A stretch of 64,000 bases of DNA from NCBI GenBank assembly GCA_039809385.1, contig JBDHUY010000005.1:62254-126253 (forward strand), written 5' to 3'. The first letter of the stretch is position 1, and every line of letters starts with the position of its first letter. The notes under the pieces are model-generated. The model saw only the letters and a program-made list of their open reading frames with translations. It was not told the origin of the DNA and ran no database searches. The translations under genes were made by a program, and so were the position numbers. This document shows positions 226 through 11,598 of this stretch, piece by piece. Origin of the DNA: Candidatus Altimarinota bacterium. Lineage in GTDB: Bacteria; Patescibacteriota; Gracilibacteria; JBDHUY01.

Positions 226-936
226 ATGTCCAAGCAATCATCCGGTATGTTGCTCGTTGGTCTGCTCCTGGGAGCTAGTTTGACCTTTTCTTTTCAGTAT
301 GCGGTCGGCATCGATAAAGATCCCGAACCTTCCGGTACTGCCACACTTTCCTTAACAGCTCCCAAATCGGTCAGTGTCTTAACAAATACAGGCGGATTTA
401 CCGTTCCAACGATACTTCAATATAAACAAAACAGTTGTACTTCCTGCAGCGGACAAGATGTGGTAAATGAGATCATGATCGATGTAAACGGCGATGGGTT
501 GACCGATATCGCGAATGTGGACAAGGATCCATACACTGGAAATAATACCTATCTGAATAACGGCGACGGAACATGGGTGGTGGGAAAAGGCGTACAGGAA
601 TATGACGGCTATAACTATGTGTACCACTATACGGATATTAACGGAGATGGAAAAGTTGAGCAGCTCCAGACTCAGTGGCAGCCGAGTGGTGACGGGTATT
701 ATTTTGTTACAATTAGCGGTACGGGGCTTGTTACTAATGCAAGTGTCAAAGTTCTCTCCACTCGACCATTTGAACGTGGCTTGCATTTTATGGATGTCAA
801 TGGCGACAGTTTACCCGATATGGTCATATCCGGGTATGATTTTCAAGGATCTTCCGGCTCGAATTACCTATACAAAGCCGTATTTCTGAATACCGGAACA
901 GGCTGGGAAAAAGTGTACGAGGCAGTTGGTTCATAA
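226..936 (+). CDS. Secreted FG-GAP/VCBS-repeat (beta-propeller blade) protein
   Basis: N-terminal hydrophobic signal/anchor. Three Ca-binding DxNGDG motifs (DVNGDGLTD, DINGDGKVE, DVNGDSLPD) with YLNNGDGTW and FLNTGTGW strands. Confidence 0.8.
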   Translation: MSKQSSGMLLVGLLLGASLTFSFQYAVGIDKDPEPSGTATLSLTAPKSVSVLTNTGGFTVPTILQYKQNSCTSCSGQDVVNEIMIDVNGDGLTDIANVDKDPYTGNNTYLNNGDGTWVVGKGVQEYDGYNYVYHYTDINGDGKVEQLQTQWQPSGDGYYFVTISGTGLVTNASVKVLSTRPFERGLHFMDVNGDSLPDMVISGYDFQGSSGSNYLYKAVFLNTGTGWEKVYEAVGS

Positions 937-972
937 GCTGTAGCTACGCTTTATTCCTCTTCTTTGATTCTT

Positions 973-3900
973 ATGAACTTCTCTATACAACTACAGCGAC
1001 GTCAGGTGCGTGCCGGTTCTGTACTCCTTGTCATCCTTATCGCGCAATTGCTTTTCTCATCAACAGCTTTGGCTCAGGAAACAGGAAATATCCCCGGGGA
1101 TATCGCCCCGCCGACCGCTTCAGGATCAGAAGTGGGGACAACTACCCTTATACCGGAAGCAACTGAAATCTCAGATGAAACGGGATCAGACAGTTTTGAC
1201 GTATCTACTCACAATGCCTCTGCGGAAAAACGTCTGGAAAAGATTGCGCCGGAAACTGCGTCGGCTTCTACCGAACCTGACACGCTACCTCCTTTTAATC
1301 CGGGAGGAATAGCACACCACGCAAATCAGGGCGATACGCTGCAAGAATTCAGCGGGACCTTCAATGCCGATCTTTTTAGCGGAAGCGCATCCTTTACCTA
1401 CCCGTTGCAACTTCCCCCGGGACGGAACAATCTGACTCCGGTACTCGGCTTGCACTATTCATCGGCAAATTCACGCCCGGACAGTCTGGCCGGTTTTGGG
1501 TGGGATAGTACGTCTTCATCGATTACCAGAACAAGCAAAAAACCGATTCAGGATATTTTTACGGATACTACATTCACTTCCTCTATTTTTGGTCAAAACG
1601 AAGAACTTGTCCTGGTAAATGCGGCCACCGGCGAATACCGTCCCAAGGTAGAAGGGTCCTTTCGTATATATACCCTGAACAACAATACCTGGCTTGTGAA
1701 AGATAAAAATGGAACCGTGTATACGTTTGGCAACTCATCCGCAAGCAGACAGGATGATCCTCTGGATGCCAGCCATATCTATCAATGGATGCTCGAAAAG
1801 ATCGAAGACCGGAATGGCAATACCATGCTGTTTTCCTATACCAAAAACCAGGGATACGTCTATCCCGACACCATACGATATACCGGCAATGGGAACGACC
1901 CGGGAATATATCAAGTCCAGTTCGGATATGCCCCGCATCCCCGCCCAGTAGAGCGATATGCTACTGGTTTTTTCGTTAAGTTATCCCAGCGGTTGACTAG
2001 TATCAATATTCAGGTCAAGCATGGCGCCTCCTATGAAACGGTCAATAGCTACCAACTCTCCTATGATGATAGCGATGTGCGGGGCCTTTTGTCTCAAATC
2101 CAGATTGTCACGGCCAGTGGAACGCTTCCGCCCACTAGGTTTGGTTATACCCATGATGCTCCGGTCGGGACGCCGTATATACCGAGCGGACTTCTCCAAT
2201 TGATCCAGACTCCGTACGGAGCAAGTACTCAATTGATGTATCGGTCATCGGCGCAGTATATCGATGCTATCGGTATGAGACTGAACCCGAAATTGCCGTT
2301 TACCATGACCACGGTTGCGCAAGTAAGTACCAAAAATACTTCGGCAGATGTGCCCAAAGTTATGACATACGAATATGCCCAGGGGCATTATTTCACTGAT
2401 TTTTATGACCACACCAAACGCGAATATGCCGGATTCGGTATAGTGACGGTGAAAGATGCGGCTGGAAATGTACAAAAGAACTATTTTCATCAGAGTGAGA
2501 AAGATTTCAGCAATACAGCTGCCGCCGCTTGGGGCGAATACCAGGATCATTTGAGTAAAAAAGGGCTGATATACCGATCGGAAAGCTATGACCATGCCGG
2601 ACATCTCTATGCTGTTTCGGTCAACAAATACGATCGTACCGACTTGGGGAATGCTCGTAACTTTCCTTTCCTGGTGCAATCGGTGAGTATGAGTTACGAC
2701 GGTACCGCTACGCATCGCGACACGGCCGTCTCCTATACCTATGATGCCTATGGCAATGTTCTGACACAAAAAAATTGGGGCGAAGTGGTCGCTGACAATG
2801 CTGGTTCGTTTACCGACTTGGGAAATGATACGGTTATACGGGAGACATCGTATGCTCTCAATGCTGCCGCGTATATTACTGCACTACCCCAGCAGGTGGT
2901 TATCAAGGACGGTTCGAATAGCATCTTGCAACAACAACGTTTCTACTACGATGGATTAGCGCTGGGGGAGGTTTCAAAGGGCAATGTAACCAAACAGGAG
3001 GACTGGCTCAAGGAATCTGACCGGTTTATCCCTGTAAAACAACAGGCGTTCAACGCATTAGGGCTTCCCACATCTGTCACCGATGCCCGCGGAAAAGTTA
3101 CGGCATATACCTATGATACGTTCAATCTTTATCCATTGGCTGTTACGAACCCGCTGGGACATGGGTTCTCTTTTGTGTACGATTATGATTCCGGGAAAGT
3201 CAAAGAGACACTCGATCCTAATGGAGCCAAAACCACGAACACGTATGACAGCTTGGGAAGATTGCTCGAGACCAGAGTTACCAACCCGACCAATCCCAGC
3301 TCCCAGCTGATAGCCAGCAGTATGCAGTATTTTGATGCCGAGATTCCGGTTAGAATCGTTACAACCCAGTTTAATGGTCAACCTGGAGATGTGGGCAAAC
3401 TGACGATCAAGTTTTTCGATGGGTTCGGCCATTTGTTGCAAACCAGAAATACCGCCGAAGCAGTGAACGAGTATGCCGTTACCTCGATCCTGTATGATGA
3501 ACAGAACCGTGTGAAAAAAGAGTTGCTGCCCATATTTGAGACCGGTGCCTCCTTTACAGTTCCAAATGCTAATGCTCCGGGAAGCAGTTTCAGCTATGAT
3601 TCGCTGGATCGTGTCCTTGCCGTCAGTAATAGTCTGGGTACAACTGCAACGAGCTATGACAAATGGACCAAACTCGTAACTGACGCCAACGGTCATCAAA
3701 AGAAGTTTTATTTTGATGCTTACCAAAATCTTGTTCAGGTTGATGAAAAGAACGGATCTGCTACATACACGACCCGCTATGACTATGACCGCTTGCAAAG
3801 ATTGGCAGCGATTACCGATGCCGAAGGTAACGTTCGTAATTTTACTTATGACTCGCTCTCGAGATTACTTTCCCAGGATATGCTGCACAAGCCGACAGCT

Positions 3901-6900
3901 AACAGCTCACAGCTGACGGCTTGGAACTATACATATGATGATACCGGTAATGTTGTACAGAAGACTGATCCGAATGGCCAGGTGGTCAGCTATACTTACG
4001 ACGATTTGAACCGTCCGTTGACGGAAGATTTTGCTGGAACAGCCGGAGTGGAAGTGAGTAATGAATATGATATCGGGATCTACGCCAAGGGCAAAGTAAA
4101 CAAAGTGAGTACCGCCGGATTGGTGCAGGAATTTGGATATGGCATTTTGGGAAATCAAGAAGTCCTAACACAGCGAATTGACGGAAAGGTCTATAATACC
4201 TATACTTCATATGATCTGCTGGGGAACGTGCTGAATGTGTCTTATAATAATTTTAAGACGATCAGTTATCAGTACAACAAAGCCTATTTGATCGATCGGG
4301 TGACGGAGGGGCTCAATGTCCTGGTAGCCAATGTGGACTACAATCCGCAGGGACTCATTAGCAAAATTGATTTTGGTAACGGCACGAGTACGGTCAACAC
4401 CTACGATCCACAGAAGCTGTATCGTTTGACAAACAAAAAAACGACCAAGGGCGCGAATATTGTCTACCAGAATATCGATTATACTTACGATCCGGTTGGA
4501 AATCTGATCAATATTACCGAGAACGCTGCTACCGCGGCCCAACGCAACGCTGTATATACATATGACGATCTTGATCGGCTTCTCTCTGCGACGACGATCC
4601 GCACTGATTCTCTTTCTGCCAATCAGAATACATTTATACAAAACTTTGACCAGCTTGTGGCTGCCCGTGTAGTCGAAGGTGATGTTGTAGCAAAAGACCT
4701 GACTTCCGCTGTGACAAGCTCTGCTGTAACTTTGACCAGTCTGACCCCAGGTAGTGGCCTGGCAGGTGCAAGTATAGTGGCTTTGGGGACAAATTTTGCG
4801 CCGACTAATAACGAGGTCAATTTTGTCGGATGTCAATCCGCGACAACAATTTATGGTATCTCTTCGGCAAACGGTACAACTTTGAATTTTGCTGTCCCTT
4901 TTTCATCAAACATCTCTGATAACTGTATTGTGATGATTCGAAGTAATAACGTATTGAGCAACGGACTTCCTTTTACTATAGTGGCCAGCAACTCCAATAC
5001 AAATTCCAGTAACCAGAATCAGAATACCAATTCTCTTACCCAAACATTTAGCTATAGTCCTACTGGTAATATCCTGTCCAATTCACTTCTGGGCAACTAC
5101 GTCTATAATGGAACGTCCAACGCCAATCCCCAGGCTGTGACGCACATAGGATCGGAACGCAGCTATATGTACGATAAAAATGGGAATGTTATCGCAACAG
5201 CAAATGCCGGTGTATCTCACAACCTGCGCTATGATTATCGTAACAACATGGTCGAGTCCAGCACAGGGACAAGTGTGACCAAGTATATGTATGACGCCAG
5301 ACATGGTCGCATGAAAAAATGGAATGTTCCATCCCCCGCAGCTGTTTGGCATAATACTATTGCCGATACCGACTGGTCGAACTTGCTCGTCCAGGTCGGA
5401 GAAACGGATACAGCCACTGAGACCCCGGTTATTCTGGCGGCTGCCGTAACCGGCCCTGTAACGCTCTCCGGATTGAATCCGACCAGCGGCCCCCCCGGAA
5501 CCGTAGTAACCTTGACCGGAACAAATTTTAGCAGTACGTCCAACCGGGTCCGCATGGAATGTACGGGGACGGGCGGAGGGCAAAAAAATATAAGCGAACT
5601 ATCTTCTGCCAACGGAACCTCTCTCTCTTTTACCGTTCCAAGCAGTCTCTCGGGTTTTCAGGGAGCGTGTACGGTCAGTGCCAGAAACAGTACCGTCGCG
5701 ACCTATAGCAATGGCTTGGTCTTTACGGTGAACGGAGTCGCTACGCTTGCCGGGCTCTCGCCTGCGAGCGGACCTCCCGTTACCAATGTTACCGTCACCG
5801 GAACCAACTTCACCAGTACGGGAAATACAGTTCAAATGAAGTGTGGTACGGCCGGAGTAAAAAGTATCGCGAACCTCGTTTCCGCGAATGGTACTAGCCT
5901 CACGTTCTCTGTTCCCGCCGCATTGTCAACCTATCAGGGAAACTGTATGGTCAGTGTACGAAACAGTAAAGTCAGTCTCTATAGTGCCGAATTGCCTTTC
6001 ACGGTCAAGGGAGGCGTTACACTGTCCGGTGTAAATCCGGCTGCCGGACCGGTGGGAACGGCTGTTACGCTGGCTGGTGAAAATTTCAGCAGTACCGGAA
6101 ATACCGTCAAAATGGTGTGTAGCGGTACGGGCGGAGGAACCAAAACCATAGCTTCAATCGATTCTCCCAGCGGAACATCGGTCGTCTTTACGGTTCCGGC
6201 TACTCTGTCTGCCTTTACTGGCAATTGCAACGTGAGCGCGCGCAGTTCCGCCATTGCGACGTACAGTAACTCGCTGGTGTATAGGGTGGGGACTGTTGCC
6301 ACGAATGGGAATGGAAACAGTTCCAACCAAAACACCAATGCTCAAAACGCGAATAGCAATGGGGCTAATTCCAATATAAACAGTGGCAGTAGTAATGCTA
6401 ATGTGAACGCTTCCAATCAGAATATCAATGCAGCCAACGTTAATATAAATCTGAATGTCAACAGCCCGGCCGGTAATACAAATGCCAATATGGCAAATCA
6501 AAACCTGAACGCTCCCCAGGGAGTTCCGGTTATCTCCACGGTCACCCCCGACTCCGGTGCGGCTGGTACGCTGGTAACGCTGCATGGTTCAGGGTTTACC
6601 GCTACGGGCAATACGGTGACGTTCAAGAAGTGTTCACCTTTGTATCAGTCGGCATCTGTCTCCAATCTATCCTCGACCAATGGCACTGACCTGGTCTTTG
6701 CCATTCCCGCGACTCTGACCGAGCCGGGCCTCTGTCAGTCCCTTCTGGTCGGGAATCCCAATGGATTTAGCAACAGTGTCTCTTTTACGATCACCACAGG
6801 CACTTCAAATGTAAATACCAATCTGAATGGCAATGGGAATACCAATGGCGAGAATGGTAATACGAACGGAAACGGGGGGAACGGTAATACAAATGCTCCG

Positions 6901-8040
6901 GCCAGTAATATGACGCTCTATCTGGGGGGCTATGAGGTAGAGGGAACCGCCGATCCGAACGGTGTTTTGACAACGCAGAATCTCAAGCGGCTGAATATCA
7001 ACCTGGGGTCTGACCAGGGGGTTTCGATTGAGACCGATCTGTCCAGTAATGTGACAAGGTATGTCTATCATCATACCGATTTTCTGACCGGCGGTTCGGT
7101 GGATACCGACCAGAATGGCTATATGCTCCAGGTGCAGGATTATATGCCTTTTGGGACGAATCGGGTTGATCAGCGGTTTTCATCGTATGCGAATAAGAAG
7201 AAATTTACGGGGAAAGAGCTGGATGGCGAAAGCGGGCTGTATTACTATGGGGCGAGGTATTATGACAGCGATATTGGCCGGTGGATGGGGTTGGATCCGC
7301 TGGTACTGGGGGAGGTAAAGGAGAAGAAGATCGCGGATCTCCTGATGAATCCCCAGGAGCTAAACGGATATACGTATGTTTTGAACAATCCGCTCAAATA
7401 TGTGGATATAACGGGATTACTTACCCAAGTCATTGTTCGGTCTGCCCGAGGATTGGCTGACATTAAGGACTTTGGGCATGTGGCAATCAGTATCAATGGA
7501 AGATGTTATGATTTTTACCCTATAAGTAACGATGCAGGTAAAAATCTTACAACGGGAAATCAGATGGTTCGAAATGTAGGAACTATATCGGACTTTATTA
7601 ATGATCCAACGAATAAACCTGGTGATGTATTTTCGATATTTACCTTAAGCAGCAATATTTCTCTAGAACAAGAGAAAATGATTGAGGAGTATCTTAAGTC
7701 ATATAATCTATCAGATAATGGGTATTCGGTTGGAGGTGCTTTCATAGAGAATGGTGGCGAAGTTTGTACAACGGTAGTGATTAACGCACTTAAAGCTGGG
7801 AATGTCTCCATCCCTCGTGTGGTAGATCCAGAGGGTCTAAGAGTCAACTTAATGCTATATTATGTTGCTTCACAATTGGGGCATGTTAATAGTATTGTAA
7901 GTTCAGTAGAAATTATAACACTTAAAGAGGCTATGAAAAAATTCCAAGGCGGTATATTTACAAACATTGTTAATCCTGCTCCCATCTATGGGCCGCCTGC
8001 TCCTTCAAAGAAAGGACAGAATTCCGGCGCCTATCCATAA
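973..8040 (+). CDS. Giant secreted Rhs/YD-repeat protein (SpvB + TcdB_midN + YD shell + IPT/TIG inserts + Rhs core + C-terminal tip)
   Basis: Signal peptide ending ALA-Q. SpvB-like SGSASFTYPLQLPPGRNNLTPVLGLHYSS; midN-like REYAGFG; many YxYD repeats; Rhs core FTGKELDGESGLYYYGARYYDSDIGRW..DP..YVLNNPLKYVDITGL. Alternative TTG start at 964. Confidence 0.93.
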   Translation: MNFSIQLQRRQVRAGSVLLVILIAQLLFSSTALAQETGNIPGDIAPPTASGSEVGTTTLIPEATEISDETGSDSFDVSTHNASAEKRLEKIAPETASASTEPDTLPPFNPGGIAHHANQGDTLQEFSGTFNADLFSGSASFTYPLQLPPGRNNLTPVLGLHYSSANSRPDSLAGFGWDSTSSSITRTSKKPIQDIFTDTTFTSSIFGQNEELVLVNAATGEYRPKVEGSFRIYTLNNNTWLVKDKNGTVYTFGNSSASRQDDPLDASHIYQWMLEKIEDRNGNTMLFSYTKNQGYVYPDTIRYTGNGNDPGIYQVQFGYAPHPRPVERYATGFFVKLSQRLTSINIQVKHGASYETVNSYQLSYDDSDVRGLLSQIQIVTASGTLPPTRFGYTHDAPVGTPYIPSGLLQLIQTPYGASTQLMYRSSAQYIDAIGMRLNPKLPFTMTTVAQVSTKNTSADVPKVMTYEYAQGHYFTDFYDHTKREYAGFGIVTVKDAAGNVQKNYFHQSEKDFSNTAAAAWGEYQDHLSKKGLIYRSESYDHAGHLYAVSVNKYDRTDLGNARNFPFLVQSVSMSYDGTATHRDTAVSYTYDAYGNVLTQKNWGEVVADNAGSFTDLGNDTVIRETSYALNAAAYITALPQQVVIKDGSNSILQQQRFYYDGLALGEVSKGNVTKQEDWLKESDRFIPVKQQAFNALGLPTSVTDARGKVTAYTYDTFNLYPLAVTNPLGHGFSFVYDYDSGKVKETLDPNGAKTTNTYDSLGRLLETRVTNPTNPSSQLIASSMQYFDAEIPVRIVTTQFNGQPGDVGKLTIKFFDGFGHLLQTRNTAEAVNEYAVTSILYDEQNRVKKELLPIFETGASFTVPNANAPGSSFSYDSLDRVLAVSNSLGTTATSYDKWTKLVTDANGHQKKFYFDAYQNLVQVDEKNGSATYTTRYDYDRLQRLAAITDAEGNVRNFTYDSLSRLLSQDMLHKPTANSSQLTAWNYTYDDTGNVVQKTDPNGQVVSYTYDDLNRPLTEDFAGTAGVEVSNEYDIGIYAKGKVNKVSTAGLVQEFGYGILGNQEVLTQRIDGKVYNTYTSYDLLGNVLNVSYNNFKTISYQYNKAYLIDRVTEGLNVLVANVDYNPQGLISKIDFGNGTSTVNTYDPQKLYRLTNKKTTKGANIVYQNIDYTYDPVGNLINITENAATAAQRNAVYTYDDLDRLLSATTIRTDSLSANQNTFIQNFDQLVAARVVEGDVVAKDLTSAVTSSAVTLTSLTPGSGLAGASIVALGTNFAPTNNEVNFVGCQSATTIYGISSANGTTLNFAVPFSSNISDNCIVMIRSNNVLSNGLPFTIVASNSNTNSSNQNQNTNSLTQTFSYSPTGNILSNSLLGNYVYNGTSNANPQAVTHIGSERSYMYDKNGNVIATANAGVSHNLRYDYRNNMVESSTGTSVTKYMYDARHGRMKKWNVPSPAAVWHNTIADTDWSNLLVQVGETDTATETPVILAAAVTGPVTLSGLNPTSGPPGTVVTLTGTNFSSTSNRVRMECTGTGGGQKNISELSSANGTSLSFTVPSSLSGFQGACTVSARNSTVATYSNGLVFTVNGVATLAGLSPASGPPVTNVTVTGTNFTSTGNTVQMKCGTAGVKSIANLVSANGTSLTFSVPAALSTYQGNCMVSVRNSKVSLYSAELPFTVKGGVTLSGVNPAAGPVGTAVTLAGENFSSTGNTVKMVCSGTGGGTKTIASIDSPSGTSVVFTVPATLSAFTGNCNVSARSSAIATYSNSLVYRVGTVATNGNGNSSNQNTNAQNANSNGANSNINSGSSNANVNASNQNINAANVNINLNVNSPAGNTNANMANQNLNAPQGVPVISTVTPDSGAAGTLVTLHGSGFTATGNTVTFKKCSPLYQSASVSNLSSTNGTDLVFAIPATLTEPGLCQSLLVGNPNGFSNSVSFTITTGTSNVNTNLNGNGNTNGENGNTNGNGGNGNTNAPASNMTLYLGGYEVEGTADPNGVLTTQNLKRLNINLGSDQGVSIETDLSSNVTRYVYHHTDFLTGGSVDTDQNGYMLQVQDYMPFGTNRVDQRFSSYANKKKFTGKELDGESGLYYYGARYYDSDIGRWMGLDPLVLGEVKEKKIADLLMNPQELNGYTYVLNNPLKYVDITGLLTQVIVRSARGLADIKDFGHVAISINGRCYDFYPISNDAGKNLTTGNQMVRNVGTISDFINDPTNKPGDVFSIFTLSSNISLEQEKMIEEYLKSYNLSDNGYSVGGAFIENGGEVCTTVVINALKAGNVSIPRVVDPEGLRVNLMLYYVASQLGHVNSIVSSVEIITLKEAMKKFQGGIFTNIVNPAPIYGPPAPSKKGQNSGAYP
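6300..6510 (+). repeat. Asn-rich low-complexity linker inside the Rhs gene (similar tracts at about 4985-5030 and 6805-6905)
   Basis: Translation such as NGNGNSSNQNTNAQNANSNGANSNINSGSSNANVNASNQNINAANVNINLNVNS. Confidence 0.85.
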
Positions 8041-8116: not shown

Positions 8117-8349
8117 CGGTCTTTTCTGATCCATCGTTGCGCTGCGTGATCAGGTTTTTATATATTCTACTGTTTCTAAATCAATCGCCTAGATAGCAGA
8201 ATATTTACAAATGCGGTCTTGGTCTGGCCAGGTTCGGTAGAAGCTCTCCAAATTTTTATTGCCCCAAATAAAGCTCGAAAATCTGTGCGATATTCCGGAC
8301 TCTGGACAAGCCAGCGTGAAGTGCCGGCTACTCGATTTTATGACAAATC

Positions 8350-9078
8350 TTATCTTTCCGGCCCTCTTCTAAAATCAATGTCAACAATGCCGACATTCAC
8401 TCGCAAATCAAGAGCTCTGGTTAGCGCCGGGTAGGCGCGTCCTTCCATAATCGTTTGTGTTAAAACATCCAACTTCCCCATACCCGGATACAGTATGGCG
8501 GTGTAGTAGACAGGATTTTCTAATGTTCTTATTCCGCCGACAAAATATGGCAATTCATGCAGAATGTATAGGGCGACAGCTTCAAGTCTTTTTATCTCCG
8601 GACTTCTTCCTCTGCCCTCGACAATATTTTTGGCAATTTCCAGCACACTGTGGTAAAAATCCGATTGCCTGGAGAACTCCCTGAAGAATATTTCCCGTCT
8701 TTTGATACACACAGGATCGCACGTTTCGTCATAATTTGCTACGGTAATCTTTGCTTGTTGCTTCACAGGAAGCCTTAACACGATCGCGGTAATAGTATCT
8801 TTCATCCTGTCTTCATCCGCAAAAGCCCGCCTCAGTGATTCAGCTCTGCCGAATTTTTCAAAGTAGTAATAGTTGGTGGCTTGTATTCTTCCCGGTACCC
8901 AGATAAGGATTTTCTCTTTTGTGTATTGTAGCGCAAAATCGAGCATGGCCCTGATATGTTCTGAATCGAATAGCCTATTTGAAAGGCTAATACCGATCCA
9001 TATATTATGTCTACGTGCATATATTTCTTCGAGATGGATGCCCATACTTGTCATCGCGTTGACTTGGAATTTTGACAT
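8350..9078 (-). CDS. tRNA-dependent cyclodipeptide synthase (CDPS)
   Basis: CDPS catalytic motifs in the expected order: IGISLSNRLF (catalytic Ser, Asn), YILHELP (YxxxExP), LYPG. Length of 242 aa is typical. Confidence 0.85.
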   Translation of the reverse strand: MSKFQVNAMTSMGIHLEEIYARRHNIWIGISLSNRLFDSEHIRAMLDFALQYTKEKILIWVPGRIQATNYYYFEKFGRAESLRRAFADEDRMKDTITAIVLRLPVKQQAKITVANYDETCDPVCIKRREIFFREFSRQSDFYHSVLEIAKNIVEGRGRSPEIKRLEAVALYILHELPYFVGGIRTLENPVYYTAILYPGMGKLDVLTQTIMEGRAYPALTRALDLRVNVGIVDIDFRRGPER

Positions 9079-9672: not shown

Positions 9673-11598
9673 ATGCTTTCCGCTCTCGATATTCAGCAGC
9701 GATTCCTCCGCTTTTTCGGCGAGGCGCCCCGCGACCACAAACGTATTCCGAATGTTTCTTTGGTTCCGCATAACGATCCGTCTTTGCTTTTCGTCAATTC
9801 GGGCATGTTTCCCCTGGTTCCGTATTTATCCGGCGAACCGCACCCGCTGGGAAAACGGCTCTGCAATTTTCAGCGTAGTATCCGGACCATGGCCGAGGAT
9901 CTGGAGGAGATCGGCGATGCCCGCCATACCACCTGTTTTAACATGATGGGCAACTGGAGTCTGGGCGATTTCTGGAAAACCGAGCAGATTCCCTGGATCG
10001 CCGAATTATATATCAAAGAGTTCGGTCTGGATATCAACCGCTTCTTCGTTTCTGTCTTTAAAGGCGATACCGATGCTCCCCGCGATGACGACGCCATCGA
10101 GATGTGGAAAAAAGTCTTTGCCCAATATGGCATCGAAGCTCAGGTGAGCGACGACCCTTACGACGTCATGAAAAATTATGACAACAGCGGTAATCTTTTG
10201 CCAGATCAGTCGAAGTCCTATCGAATCTTTGCCTATGAAAAGAAGAAAAACTGGTGGCAGCGCGGCCATGCGGCCGGTGAGCTCGGAGGTCCTTCGAGTG
10301 AAATGTTTTACGATTGCGGGGCTCCGCTCGAGGGCGAGTATAAAAATGCCTATCATATCAATGACGACAGCGGCAAATTCATCGAGGTTGGTAACAACGT
10401 TTTCATGGAATATTACCTCGATGAGGGTTTGAAATGGCAGAAGCTCAAGCAGCGCAATATCGACTTTGGCGGCGGGTTTGAACGGGTAGTTTTTTGCACC
10501 CAGAACAAGATGGACATTTTCGACACCGAACTCTATTTACCGGCTATTCAGGTTATCGAACAGCTTTCAGGTTTGAAATACCACGATCTGTCTGAAACGG
10601 CCAAAAAGCCGTTCCGGGTAATTGTCGACCATATTCGCGCCGCGACGTTCATCATGGGCGACGAAGTCCTGCCGAGTAACAAGGAACAGGGGTATATCTT
10701 GCGCCGCTTTATTCGGCGTGCGATCAACTTTGGCAGAAAGTTGAATCTGGACAAAGGCTTTACCGGAGAGGTGGGGGCCCGGTTTGTAGACATACTGACA
10801 CAGTTTGACGACTATGTTTTTTTGAAGGAGAAAAAGGAAATGATTGTGGCCGAACTGCTTAAAGAAGAAGACAAGTTTCATAAAACCCTGTCGCAGGGGA
10901 TTCGCGAACTGGACAAATATCTGTCTACGAGTCCAACGTTGTCGGGGGAGCAGGCATTTTATATTTTTGAAACGTTCGGTTTTCCGTTTGATCTGATTGT
11001 GGACGAGCTAATTAGTCGTGCGATTCCTTTTGACTGGAACAACCTTGAAGCCGATTTTAAAAAGGCTATGCAGCAGCACCGCGCTCAAAGTAATGCCGGA
11101 GCCGAACATGTCTTTAAGGGCGGGCTGGCCGACACCAAGGTTGAGACAACCCGGCTGCATACGACGCACCATATTTTACTGGCGACGTTACGCAAAATCT
11201 TGGGGCCGCATGTCCATCAGCGAGGGAGCAATATTACGGCGGAGCGGCTGCGGATGGATTTTTCGCATACCGAAAAAATGACGCCCGAGCAGCTGCAAAT
11301 TACCGAGGATATGGTGAATGAGGTTATTTCGAAAGACTATACTATGGTCCGCCGCGAGATGAAGTTTGACGAGGCGGTCAACCAGGGCGCCGAGATGGAA
11401 TTTGGACAAAAATATGGCGATGTCGTGTCTGTCTACTTTCTCGAGGATGCCGAGGGTAATGCCTTCAGCAAGGAGTTTTGCGGCGGGCCGCATGTCCAAC
11501 ATACGTCCGAAATTCGCGAGGGCGGGAGGTTCAAGATTATGAAGGAAGAGGCGGTGGGGAGCGGGGTGAGGAGGATTAAGGGGGTGTTGGTTAAGTAA
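9673..11598 (+). CDS. alaS: Alanine--tRNA ligase (short form, no C-Ala domain)
   Basis: LVPHNDPSLLFVNSGMFPL, RHTTCFNMMGNWSLGDF, DHIRAATF; editing motifs HTTHH and CGGPH; ends after GVRRIKG. Confidence 0.97.
   Translation: MLSALDIQQRFLRFFGEAPRDHKRIPNVSLVPHNDPSLLFVNSGMFPLVPYLSGEPHPLGKRLCNFQRSIRTMAEDLEEIGDARHTTCFNMMGNWSLGDFWKTEQIPWIAELYIKEFGLDINRFFVSVFKGDTDAPRDDDAIEMWKKVFAQYGIEAQVSDDPYDVMKNYDNSGNLLPDQSKSYRIFAYEKKKNWWQRGHAAGELGGPSSEMFYDCGAPLEGEYKNAYHINDDSGKFIEVGNNVFMEYYLDEGLKWQKLKQRNIDFGGGFERVVFCTQNKMDIFDTELYLPAIQVIEQLSGLKYHDLSETAKKPFRVIVDHIRAATFIMGDEVLPSNKEQGYILRRFIRRAINFGRKLNLDKGFTGEVGARFVDILTQFDDYVFLKEKKEMIVAELLKEEDKFHKTLSQGIRELDKYLSTSPTLSGEQAFYIFETFGFPFDLIVDELISRAIPFDWNNLEADFKKAMQQHRAQSNAGAEHVFKGGLADTKVETTRLHTTHHILLATLRKILGPHVHQRGSNITAERLRMDFSHTEKMTPEQLQITEDMVNEVISKDYTMVRREMKFDEAVNQGAEMEFGQKYGDVVSVYFLEDAEGNAFSKEFCGGPHVQHTSEIREGGRFKIMKEEAVGSGVRRIKGVLVK

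Follow-up and report, generated by a model that had tools for sequence, protein, structure and literature searches.

We describe here a gene pair at the start of a 64,000-nucleotide (nt) stretch from Candidatus Altimarinota bacterium (contig JBDHUY010000005.1, positions 62,254 to 126,253; the whole stretch is called the window below). The pair consists of a gene for an SpvB-type Rhs polymorphic toxin, whose product lacks the beta-propeller that most of its relatives carry, and a small same-strand gene directly upstream, ORF226 (ORF, open reading frame), which encodes FG-GAP propeller blades behind a signal-peptide-like start. A two-component system in the genetic sense is well supported by the sequence comparisons given below. 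We see about an even chance that the two genes form a secreted toxin system in which the blades dock on the constant shell of the Rhs as a cap or adaptor; the cap mechanism is a step that we infer. The Rhs gene and its parts are as follows (aa, amino acids).

964..8040, + strand: propeller-less SpvB-type Rhs polymorphic toxin, 2358 aa (ORF list, Pfam, TIGR and PDB matches)
964..1074, + strand: signal-peptide-like N-terminus, up to STALA/QE at aa 37 (read from the sequence)
1378..1851, + strand: SpvB domain, aa 139-296 (Pfam SpvB, E 4.7e-18; PDB 6p0x, E 1e-10)
2017..2481, + strand: TcdB_toxin_midN region, aa 352-506 (Pfam, E 1.2e-11)
2125..2241, + strand: junction of LPPTRFGY, a 13-residue linker and GLLQLIQTPYGASTQLMY, aa 388-426, the site of the relatives' propeller (alignment)
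4831..6843, + strand: IPT/TIG repeat insert in the RHS shell region, about aa 1290-1960 (Pfam TIG, E 1.4e-13, four stretches)
7141..7419, + strand: Rhs-associated core, aa 2060-2152, ending NPLKYVDITG (TIGR03696, E 4.9e-19)
7420..8037, + strand: C-terminal variable (toxin) region, 206 aa, no known family (best Pfam E 0.24)

The window Rhs thus has the SpvB domain, the midN region, the RHS repeats and the Rhs core of a TcB-type protein, and what it lacks of that type is the in-chain propeller between SpvB and midN. Its PDB sequence matches comprised type VI Rhs shells, the SpvB N-terminal domain 6p0x, YenB (E 1.6e-5) and TcdB1 (E 9.8e-5). The copy of this protein in the database (P0059) has 2355 aa, which fits an ATG start at position 973.

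An earlier reading of the window made from its letters alone (the sequence-only reading) had stated that SpvB-type Rhs proteins usually carry a propeller between SpvB and midN, and that the window Rhs jumps from one region to the other over about 12 residues without a DxNGDG motif. Both statements were confirmed. No DxNGD motif is present in the window Rhs, and 13 residues separate LPPTRFGY (aa 388-395) from GLLQLIQTPYGASTQLMY (aa 409-426). When Rhs aa 120-720 was used as the query, 386 relatives were obtained at E<=0.001, and the best 120 were listed. Propellers are carried by 98 of these 120, with one to seven motifs (usually four to six) and a local alignment interrupted at about 52 % coverage. 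In the other 22, including the window's own copy, the first 1200 residues are free of DxNGD motifs and the alignment spans about 99 % of the Rhs query, so the jump is true of a whole group of proteins. In all 98 propeller-bearing relatives an insert of 324-612 aa (median 360.5) lies at the SpvB-midN junction, and the alignment break maps exactly between LPPT.F.Y and LL..I..P.G. The scored junction window contained 5-11 residues in the 22 motif-less proteins versus 322-350 in eight propeller-bearing ones.

A FastTree tree was drawn from 137 N-terminal regions over 552 columns, without the propeller columns. In it, a single branch (Shimodaira-Hasegawa-like support 100) separates the 39 propeller-less rows from all others, and one change suffices to explain them. 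Although the tree was rooted only at its midpoint, we read the change as a loss, since propeller-bearing forms are the majority and six propeller-bearing rows adjoin the propeller-less clade. Within this clade the alignments show the propeller replaced by a linker of about 10 residues.

The genomic neighbourhood was then compared. Reference genomes were scanned with an alignment of Rhs aa 135-520, and 18 loci were returned, all of them propeller-less because their matches are uninterrupted. They come mostly from Patescibacteria (Peregrinibacteria, Gracilibacteria, Altimarinota, Wildermuthbacteria and Komeilibacteria); the hosts outside this group are Tenacibaculum xiamenense and one gammaproteobacterial metagenome-assembled genome. 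Based on motif inspection, alignment and the family profile described below, one to three same-strand blade-bearing genes lie directly 5' of the Rhs gene in 17 of the 18 loci, with L018 counted on the strength of remnants. The numbers of small upstream blade genes are:

L001: 1
L002: 2
L003: 3
L004: 2
L005: 2
L006: at least 1 (contig end)
L007: 2
L008: 3
L009: 1
L010: 1
L011: 2
L012: 2
L013: 0
L014: 1
L015: 1
L016: 1
L017: 1
L018: remnants only, beside a degraded Rhs

The first partner profile was built from ORF226 and three close homologues only. It gave weak matches (E 6e-10 to 7e-3) to same-strand ORFs just 5' of the Rhs in 11 loci under translation table 11 and in a twelfth under table 25; outside the window, its only further matches were downstream of the L012 Rhs. 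A profile of the whole partner family was run against 1786 ORFs of at least 50 aa, drawn from 240 kb of sequence (the 18 loci plus the whole window). It matched the upstream partner ORFs, ORF226 (E 5e-14), the L009 partner (E 2e-18) and an extra pair near the L012 Rhs, and nothing else; this result is circular for the members of the profile itself and non-circular for ORF226 and L009. The extra pair (L012, 11823-12727) is a second set of single-blade partner genes, downstream of the Rhs.

A separate upstream blade ORF was found in none of four propeller-bearing SpvB loci (Janthinobacterium, Salinirubellus, Rhizobium and Embleya; large plasmid-type replicons, 27-30 % identity), where blade matches fell only inside the big protein. 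In the Salinirubellus locus a neuraminidase-like gene, annotated like TcA, lies upstream. The sequence-only reading had regarded a common absence of the neighbour from propeller-less homologues as fatal to its proposal, and the scan found the opposite. The retention of the pairing is notable, as it persists at 29-40 % Rhs identity, in several phyla and with a changing number and type of partners. The whole cassette was probably transferred into Bacteroidota and Gammaproteobacteria.

Three further observations concern the Rhs genes of these loci. An in-frame fusion of the third partner gene to the Rhs in L003 (about 4540-4640) was considered and rejected, as a run of N marks an assembly gap in the scaffold. 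The Rhs of L009 (1443-6176) has an in-frame TGA, giving 266 aa under table 11 versus an open frame of 1578 aa under table 25, and that of L015 (5782-11085) likewise gives 414 aa versus 1768 aa. These interruptions could be recoding, pseudogenes or sequencing errors.

The upstream proteins were aligned and searched for domains. A typical partner has 130-240 aa, with a signal peptide ending in SFA or AQ(A/E), an acidic linker and a conserved domain of about 100 residues. The pattern of the domain is C.D..x.WP.S...W, followed by QF.D.NGDGL.DY.Y, CV.LNNG.GWD.VYRC and YYGDCA, and it contains four conserved cysteines; the regions between the conserved strands are variable. On this pattern, the majority of the partners belong to an unnamed single-blade, four-cysteine family with a YGDCA end. 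When 24 partners were scanned with Pfam, 19 had no family at E<=0.01 and three had sub-threshold FG-GAP matches only; the L009 protein alone passed the FG-GAP cut-off. In L015, the partner (4159-5778, 540 aa) has a LamG domain (Laminin_G_3) fused ahead of a single sub-threshold blade and the YGDCA end.

A second, rarer form is represented by ORF226 and the L009 protein, which have three canonical blades and no cysteine-rich C-terminal strand. It occurs at two separate places on the Rhs tree, one being the window together with P0060 and the other L009. When the ORF226 family alignment (A1) was compared with the single-blade family alignment (A5) using hhalign, a probability of 96.9 % and an E-value of 1.6e-10 were obtained, with the best alignment on blade 1. 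Judged by this comparison, the two partner forms are homologous over one blade. Across 25 partner proteins D190, N192, D194, D198 and G224 (ORF226 numbering) are invariant. In the case of ORF226, the A5 profile (E 5e-14) finds its blade region, D.NGDGL.D ... LNNG.GW, in all three blades. ORF226 ends with ..GWEKVYEAVGS before the Y[YFH]GDCA strand and has none of the four cysteines; in position it agrees with the family, being on the same strand, directly 5' of a propeller-less SpvB-Rhs and with a signal-peptide-like start. The two-component Rhs of the earlier proposal therefore holds for the linkage of secreted blade genes in 17 of 18 loci, and fails in that the partner is not a full blade set (three blades in ORF226, one in most partners).

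An AlphaFold2 (AF2) model of the single-blade partner at L008 5087-5566, made from a 22-sequence alignment, had a mean predicted local distance difference test (pLDDT) score of 77.3, with residues 55-160 mostly above 85. It is predicted as a five-strand beta meander with a calcium loop. A Foldseek search of this model against PDB gave nothing at E<=0.001 (best E 0.29).

The window partner itself has the following features.

226..936, + strand: ORF226, predicted exported three-blade FG-GAP protein, 236 aa, coordinates including the stop (ORF list and Pfam)
226..309, + strand: signal-peptide-like N-terminus, about aa 1-28 (by-eye reading: K3 and the hydrophobic run MLLVGLLLGASLTFSF)
469..588, + strand: blade 1, aa 82-121, DVNGDG at aa 86 (motif; conserved in family alignment A1; four strands in the low-confidence AF2 model)
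616..756, + strand: blade 2, aa 131-177, DINGDG at aa 137 (motif, alignment A1 and AF2 model)
772..930, + strand: blade 3, aa 183-235, DVNGDS at aa 190 and LNTGTGW (the blade in common with the single-blade partner family)
937..972, + strand: spacer between ORF226 and Rhs, 27 nt to TTG at 964 or 36 nt to ATG at 973

Between ORF226 and the Rhs gene, no site resembling a terminator was found. The signal peptide claimed for ORF226 agrees with our by-eye reading, in which a basic residue is followed by 16 hydrophobic residues in a row. Three DxNGD[GS] motifs are present (aa 86, 137 and 190), including GLHFMDVNGDSLPD..FLNTGTGW, and they repeat the calcium loop DxNxDxxxD at a spacing of about 50-60 residues, with the loops conserved in the family alignment. 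The Pfam model FG-GAP_3 matches ORF226 with 36.7 bits (cut-off 26.9; E 6.6e-9), and PF01839 remains under its cut-off (15.8 vs 22.1). With three motif blades and an N-terminal hairpin, ORF226 does not reach the six or seven blades per chain at which a propeller closes. Its AF2 model from a 4-sequence alignment was poor (pLDDT 40.7), although the strands fit an N-terminal hairpin and three four-stranded blades. No PDB sequence matched ORF226 at E<=1, and two Atlas searches gave generic FG-GAP leads only (scores 0.88 and 0.92).

The ORF226 form is rare. Seven near-length matches were found in a set of 5.8 billion proteins, and the architecture is common only to P0003, P0004 and P0005, which are homologues of the same length with 97 %, 38 % and 36 % identity, respectively. 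The ORF226-family profile matched 13048 library proteins at E<=0.001, of which only two among the best 150 were family-sized; the best 150 in the search of representatives were dominated by long multi-repeat FG-GAP proteins. P0006 (392 aa, on a 3.4-kb contig) has a hydrophobic N-terminus and six DxNGD motifs; with blades of the TcB-like type, it makes up an entire propeller by itself, and it also matches the midN model (E 1.3e-10).

The sequence-only reading had described ORF226 as encoding exactly the blades that are missing from the Rhs. They are blades of the same kind: the ORF226 profile matched all 98 embedded propellers, which disposes of the concern that ORF226 might be unrelated to Rhs-embedded blades. 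With the single-blade profile, the median score of the best blade was 23.7 bits in the 98 embedded propellers versus 9.2 bits in 200 generic FG-GAP proteins, and several top-scoring members of the generic set proved to be TcB-like themselves, with SpvB or midN domains. The medians of the ORF226 profile were equal (23.9 bits embedded vs 24.2 bits generic), in a comparison where 148 of the 200 generic proteins had been picked as that profile's own best matches out of 1.8 billion. The profile scores thus support a kinship of the partner blades with Rhs-type blades. The stronger claim was not borne out, as ORF226 has three blades, is no whole propeller and does not correspond to particular embedded blades. 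An origin of the N-terminal region of ORF226 from the start of SpvB was also considered and rejected because the Rhs N-terminal profile gave at most 2.7 bits on all small proteins; no similarity of these proteins to SpvB or midN parts was found above that score. We conclude that the data support Rhs-blade kinship and do not support a clean excision of particular blades from an embedded propeller, because the profiles match embedded blades, yet no register is preferred and there is no similarity to SpvB or midN.

If the pair works as a toxin system, both proteins would be exported by the Sec route and would meet outside the cytoplasm. Docking would take place between the conserved calcium-loop blade of the partner and the constant N-terminal part of the Rhs shell, most likely at the former propeller pole, and would supply in trans the role that the propeller has in cis, as a gate, cap or docking adaptor. 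Specificity might be set by the variable parts of the partners, namely the N-terminal region, the inter-strand loops, the copy number and, in one locus, the LamG lectin domain. With no more than one to three blades in a single chain, oligomers may be needed; a pair of ORF226 molecules would provide six blades.

This proposal was compared with known systems. The TcB-TcC cocoon (TcdB2-TccC3, YenB-YenC) has, like the window Rhs, SpvB, midN, an RHS-repeat shell, a core and a variable C-terminal toxin. Its propeller has the same repeat type as the partner blades, and the available part of PMC8765631 describes it as sealing the cocoon as a gate that is opened by TcA, with a plug domain forming a constriction. 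In contrast to TcB-TcC, the window shell protein has no propeller and the blades are encoded separately; moreover, a single polypeptide comprises both shell and toxin and begins with a signal-peptide-like stretch. No TcA-like, VRP1 or neuraminidase-like family was found among the 47 window ORFs scanned, the window starting 225 nt 5' of ORF226 with the genes further upstream out of view. Additional partner genes 5' of ORF226 are possible for the same reason.

A signal peptide with an SpvB-plus-propeller N-terminus marks a separate export and trafficking class of polymorphic toxins, 'TcdB/TcaC', in the available part of Zhang et al. 2012 (PMC3482391). The 98 propeller-bearing relatives fit this class. 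The window Rhs has its signal peptide, SpvB, RHS repeats and polymorphic C-terminus; however, as far as that part of the paper goes, the class is defined by SpvB and propeller in one chain, and the window clade has no propeller in cis.

Type VI Rhs proteins are propeller-less cocoons like the window Rhs. In the available part of PMC8765631, a plug homologous to that of Tc toxins alone seals the cocoon, and RhsA of Pseudomonas protegens is closed by its N-terminal plug. Unlike the window Rhs, type VI Rhs proteins have PAAR or VgrG-binding N-termini, with no SpvB domain and no signal peptide. Their helper proteins are cytoplasmic chaperones, not secreted FG-GAP proteins. In teneurins, a YD/Rhs shell is closed at its pole by a plug, which a separate NHL propeller domain stabilises (PMC8765631, in the part available); they differ in being eukaryotic and in having a propeller of another family in the same chain.

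Several points weigh against docking as a cap or adaptor. None of the partners amounts to a whole propeller, and the partner copy number (1, 2 or 3) gives no simple blade arithmetic. The small gene sits 5' of the whole Rhs gene, away from the deletion site, and a clean gene split of an embedded propeller was rejected when a blade-register test gave no preferred position. One locus (L013) has no blade neighbour, and the 648 nt available upstream are occupied by an AbiEii gene. The control consists of four distant loci (27-30 % identity). Because the propeller-less sequences form one clade, the 17 linked loci count as one evolutionary event, reflecting retention and not repeated co-evolution, and the linkage could be inherited synteny. 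The ORF226 model is poor (pLDDT 40.7), and the L008 partner model has no significant PDB neighbour. By analogy with type VI Rhs, a plug domain within the shell protein may be what seals it. A cap may then be unnecessary, because Tc cocoons also hold a plug homologous to the sole seal of type VI Rhs (PMC8765631, in the part available).

In the main rival explanation, the partners are accessories dedicated to the Rhs proteins of this clade and replace no propeller, acting instead as an envelope tether, in export or folding, or in receptor binding, on a shell that is sealed by its plug. The same upstream linkage evidence applies to it, and it agrees with the one to three blades of the partners, the variable regions between their conserved strands, the LamG lectin domain fused in the L015 partner and the type VI plug, which is homologous to the Tc constriction and seals without a propeller (PMC8765631, in the part available). 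It leaves unexplained that blade partners occur where the cis propeller is missing, versus none in the four propeller-bearing controls, and that the blades are closer to Rhs-embedded than to generic ones. We consider this explanation possible but on the doubtful side.

A stricter version of the docking proposal states that the propeller gate was removed from the shell and is rebuilt outside the cell from secreted one- to three-blade subunits (two ORF226, or several YGDCA proteins). There is a precedent for closure by oligomers in the Ralstonia lectin RSL, whose six-blade propeller is closed as a trimer of two-blade chains. Such oligomeric closure would be required of ORF226 or the single-blade partners, although the RSL repeat family is unrelated. 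We regard this version as unlikely. If true, the cap would be modular and exchangeable, with the subunit composition setting when and on what the container opens, and this toxin class would have its first known case of a split, oligomeric propeller.

That the two genes share an inherited neighbourhood and no function, ORF226 being an independent secreted FG-GAP protein, appears very improbable. It is true that the linked loci are all in one clade and that FG-GAP proteins are extremely common, as seen in the 13048 library matches of the ORF226 profile (E<=0.001). Against this, the pairing is kept at 29-40 % Rhs identity across several phyla, it survives changes in partner copy number and type, the same-strand spacing is tight, and the partner family occurs nowhere else in the 240 kb except for the extra pair beside the L012 Rhs.

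The C-terminal toxin regions were compared as well, since they bear on whether the partners could be immunity proteins. In 25 clade members with the core motif these regions have 145-229 aa and are of nearly as many types as there are members; only six pairs are similar at E<=1e-5, one of which is the same protein. No C-terminus like that of the window Rhs was found among the 24 other members at this threshold. The only small same-strand ORF downstream of the window Rhs (8219-8434, 71 aa) has no family, and therefore no immunity gene is evident there. In L004 (5722-9642) and L011 (5740-9669), from Tenacibaculum and one Altimarinota genome, the Rhs-like protein is about 1306-1309 aa long and has neither the core motif nor a toxin; P0071 and P0073 share this short length. 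Directly after these short genes, a subtilase-domain protein (Peptidase_S8) of about 900 aa is encoded (L004 9648-12431; L011 9669-12281).

An immunity role of the partners is unlikely because the toxin tips vary highly while the partners are one conserved family, encoded 5' of the constant Rhs end and not behind the toxin, and also found beside the tip-less L004 and L011 genes. Hence it is hardly credible that the partners protect the producer as inhibitors outside the cytoplasm, or as immunity-like factors, in the manner of PliI/XAC2610: an FG-GAP-like calcium loop in a small, secreted beta protein is common to both, but the ORF226 matches (PliI 17.6 bits, cut-off 27; XAC2610_fam 18.5, cut-off 35) are all under the family cut-offs and restricted to the calcium-loop motif, the PliI structures at ranks 4 and 11 of the partner fold search (probabilities 0.44 and 0.35) have E-values of 0.4-0.7 and TM-scores of about 0.2, and the genomic logic does not fit immunity.

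Some further observations were made on the window. N/G/Q-rich linkers flank the IPT/TIG block of the Rhs; in some relatives, a LamG or DUF2341 domain is found about as far into the protein. A 242-aa ORF on the minus strand (8350-9078), situated between the Rhs and the gene for alanyl-tRNA synthetase (9673-11598), matches cyclodipeptide synthase (CDPS, E 3.4e-9). The region 9673-63717 is ordinary chromosome with alaS, a prfA-like release factor, lgt, ruvB, trmD, gyrA and ssb, and it also encodes a type II/IV secretion ATPase and an export set of the MacB/FtsX-HlyD-ABC kind. Searches of the window revealed neither tRNA genes nor a TcA-like gene.

In the parts of the literature returned by our search, no Rhs or Tc system with a separately encoded (split, trans) propeller is described, nor is the YGDCA family. 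The pair thus combines a familiar kind of toxin container with a split architecture that is new and with an undescribed partner family. Rhs and Tc cocoons are a widespread form of toxin packaging, and in the Tc systems studied, release is controlled by the propeller as a gate. A lineage with blade modules separate from the shell offers a genetic handle on the role of the propeller where there is no TcA injector, which is the situation of most SpvB-Rhs proteins in uncultivated bacteria. It also defines an unnamed family of small proteins with an obvious partner for functional tests and, if docking is real, would provide a naturally modular cap for protein-encapsulation shells.

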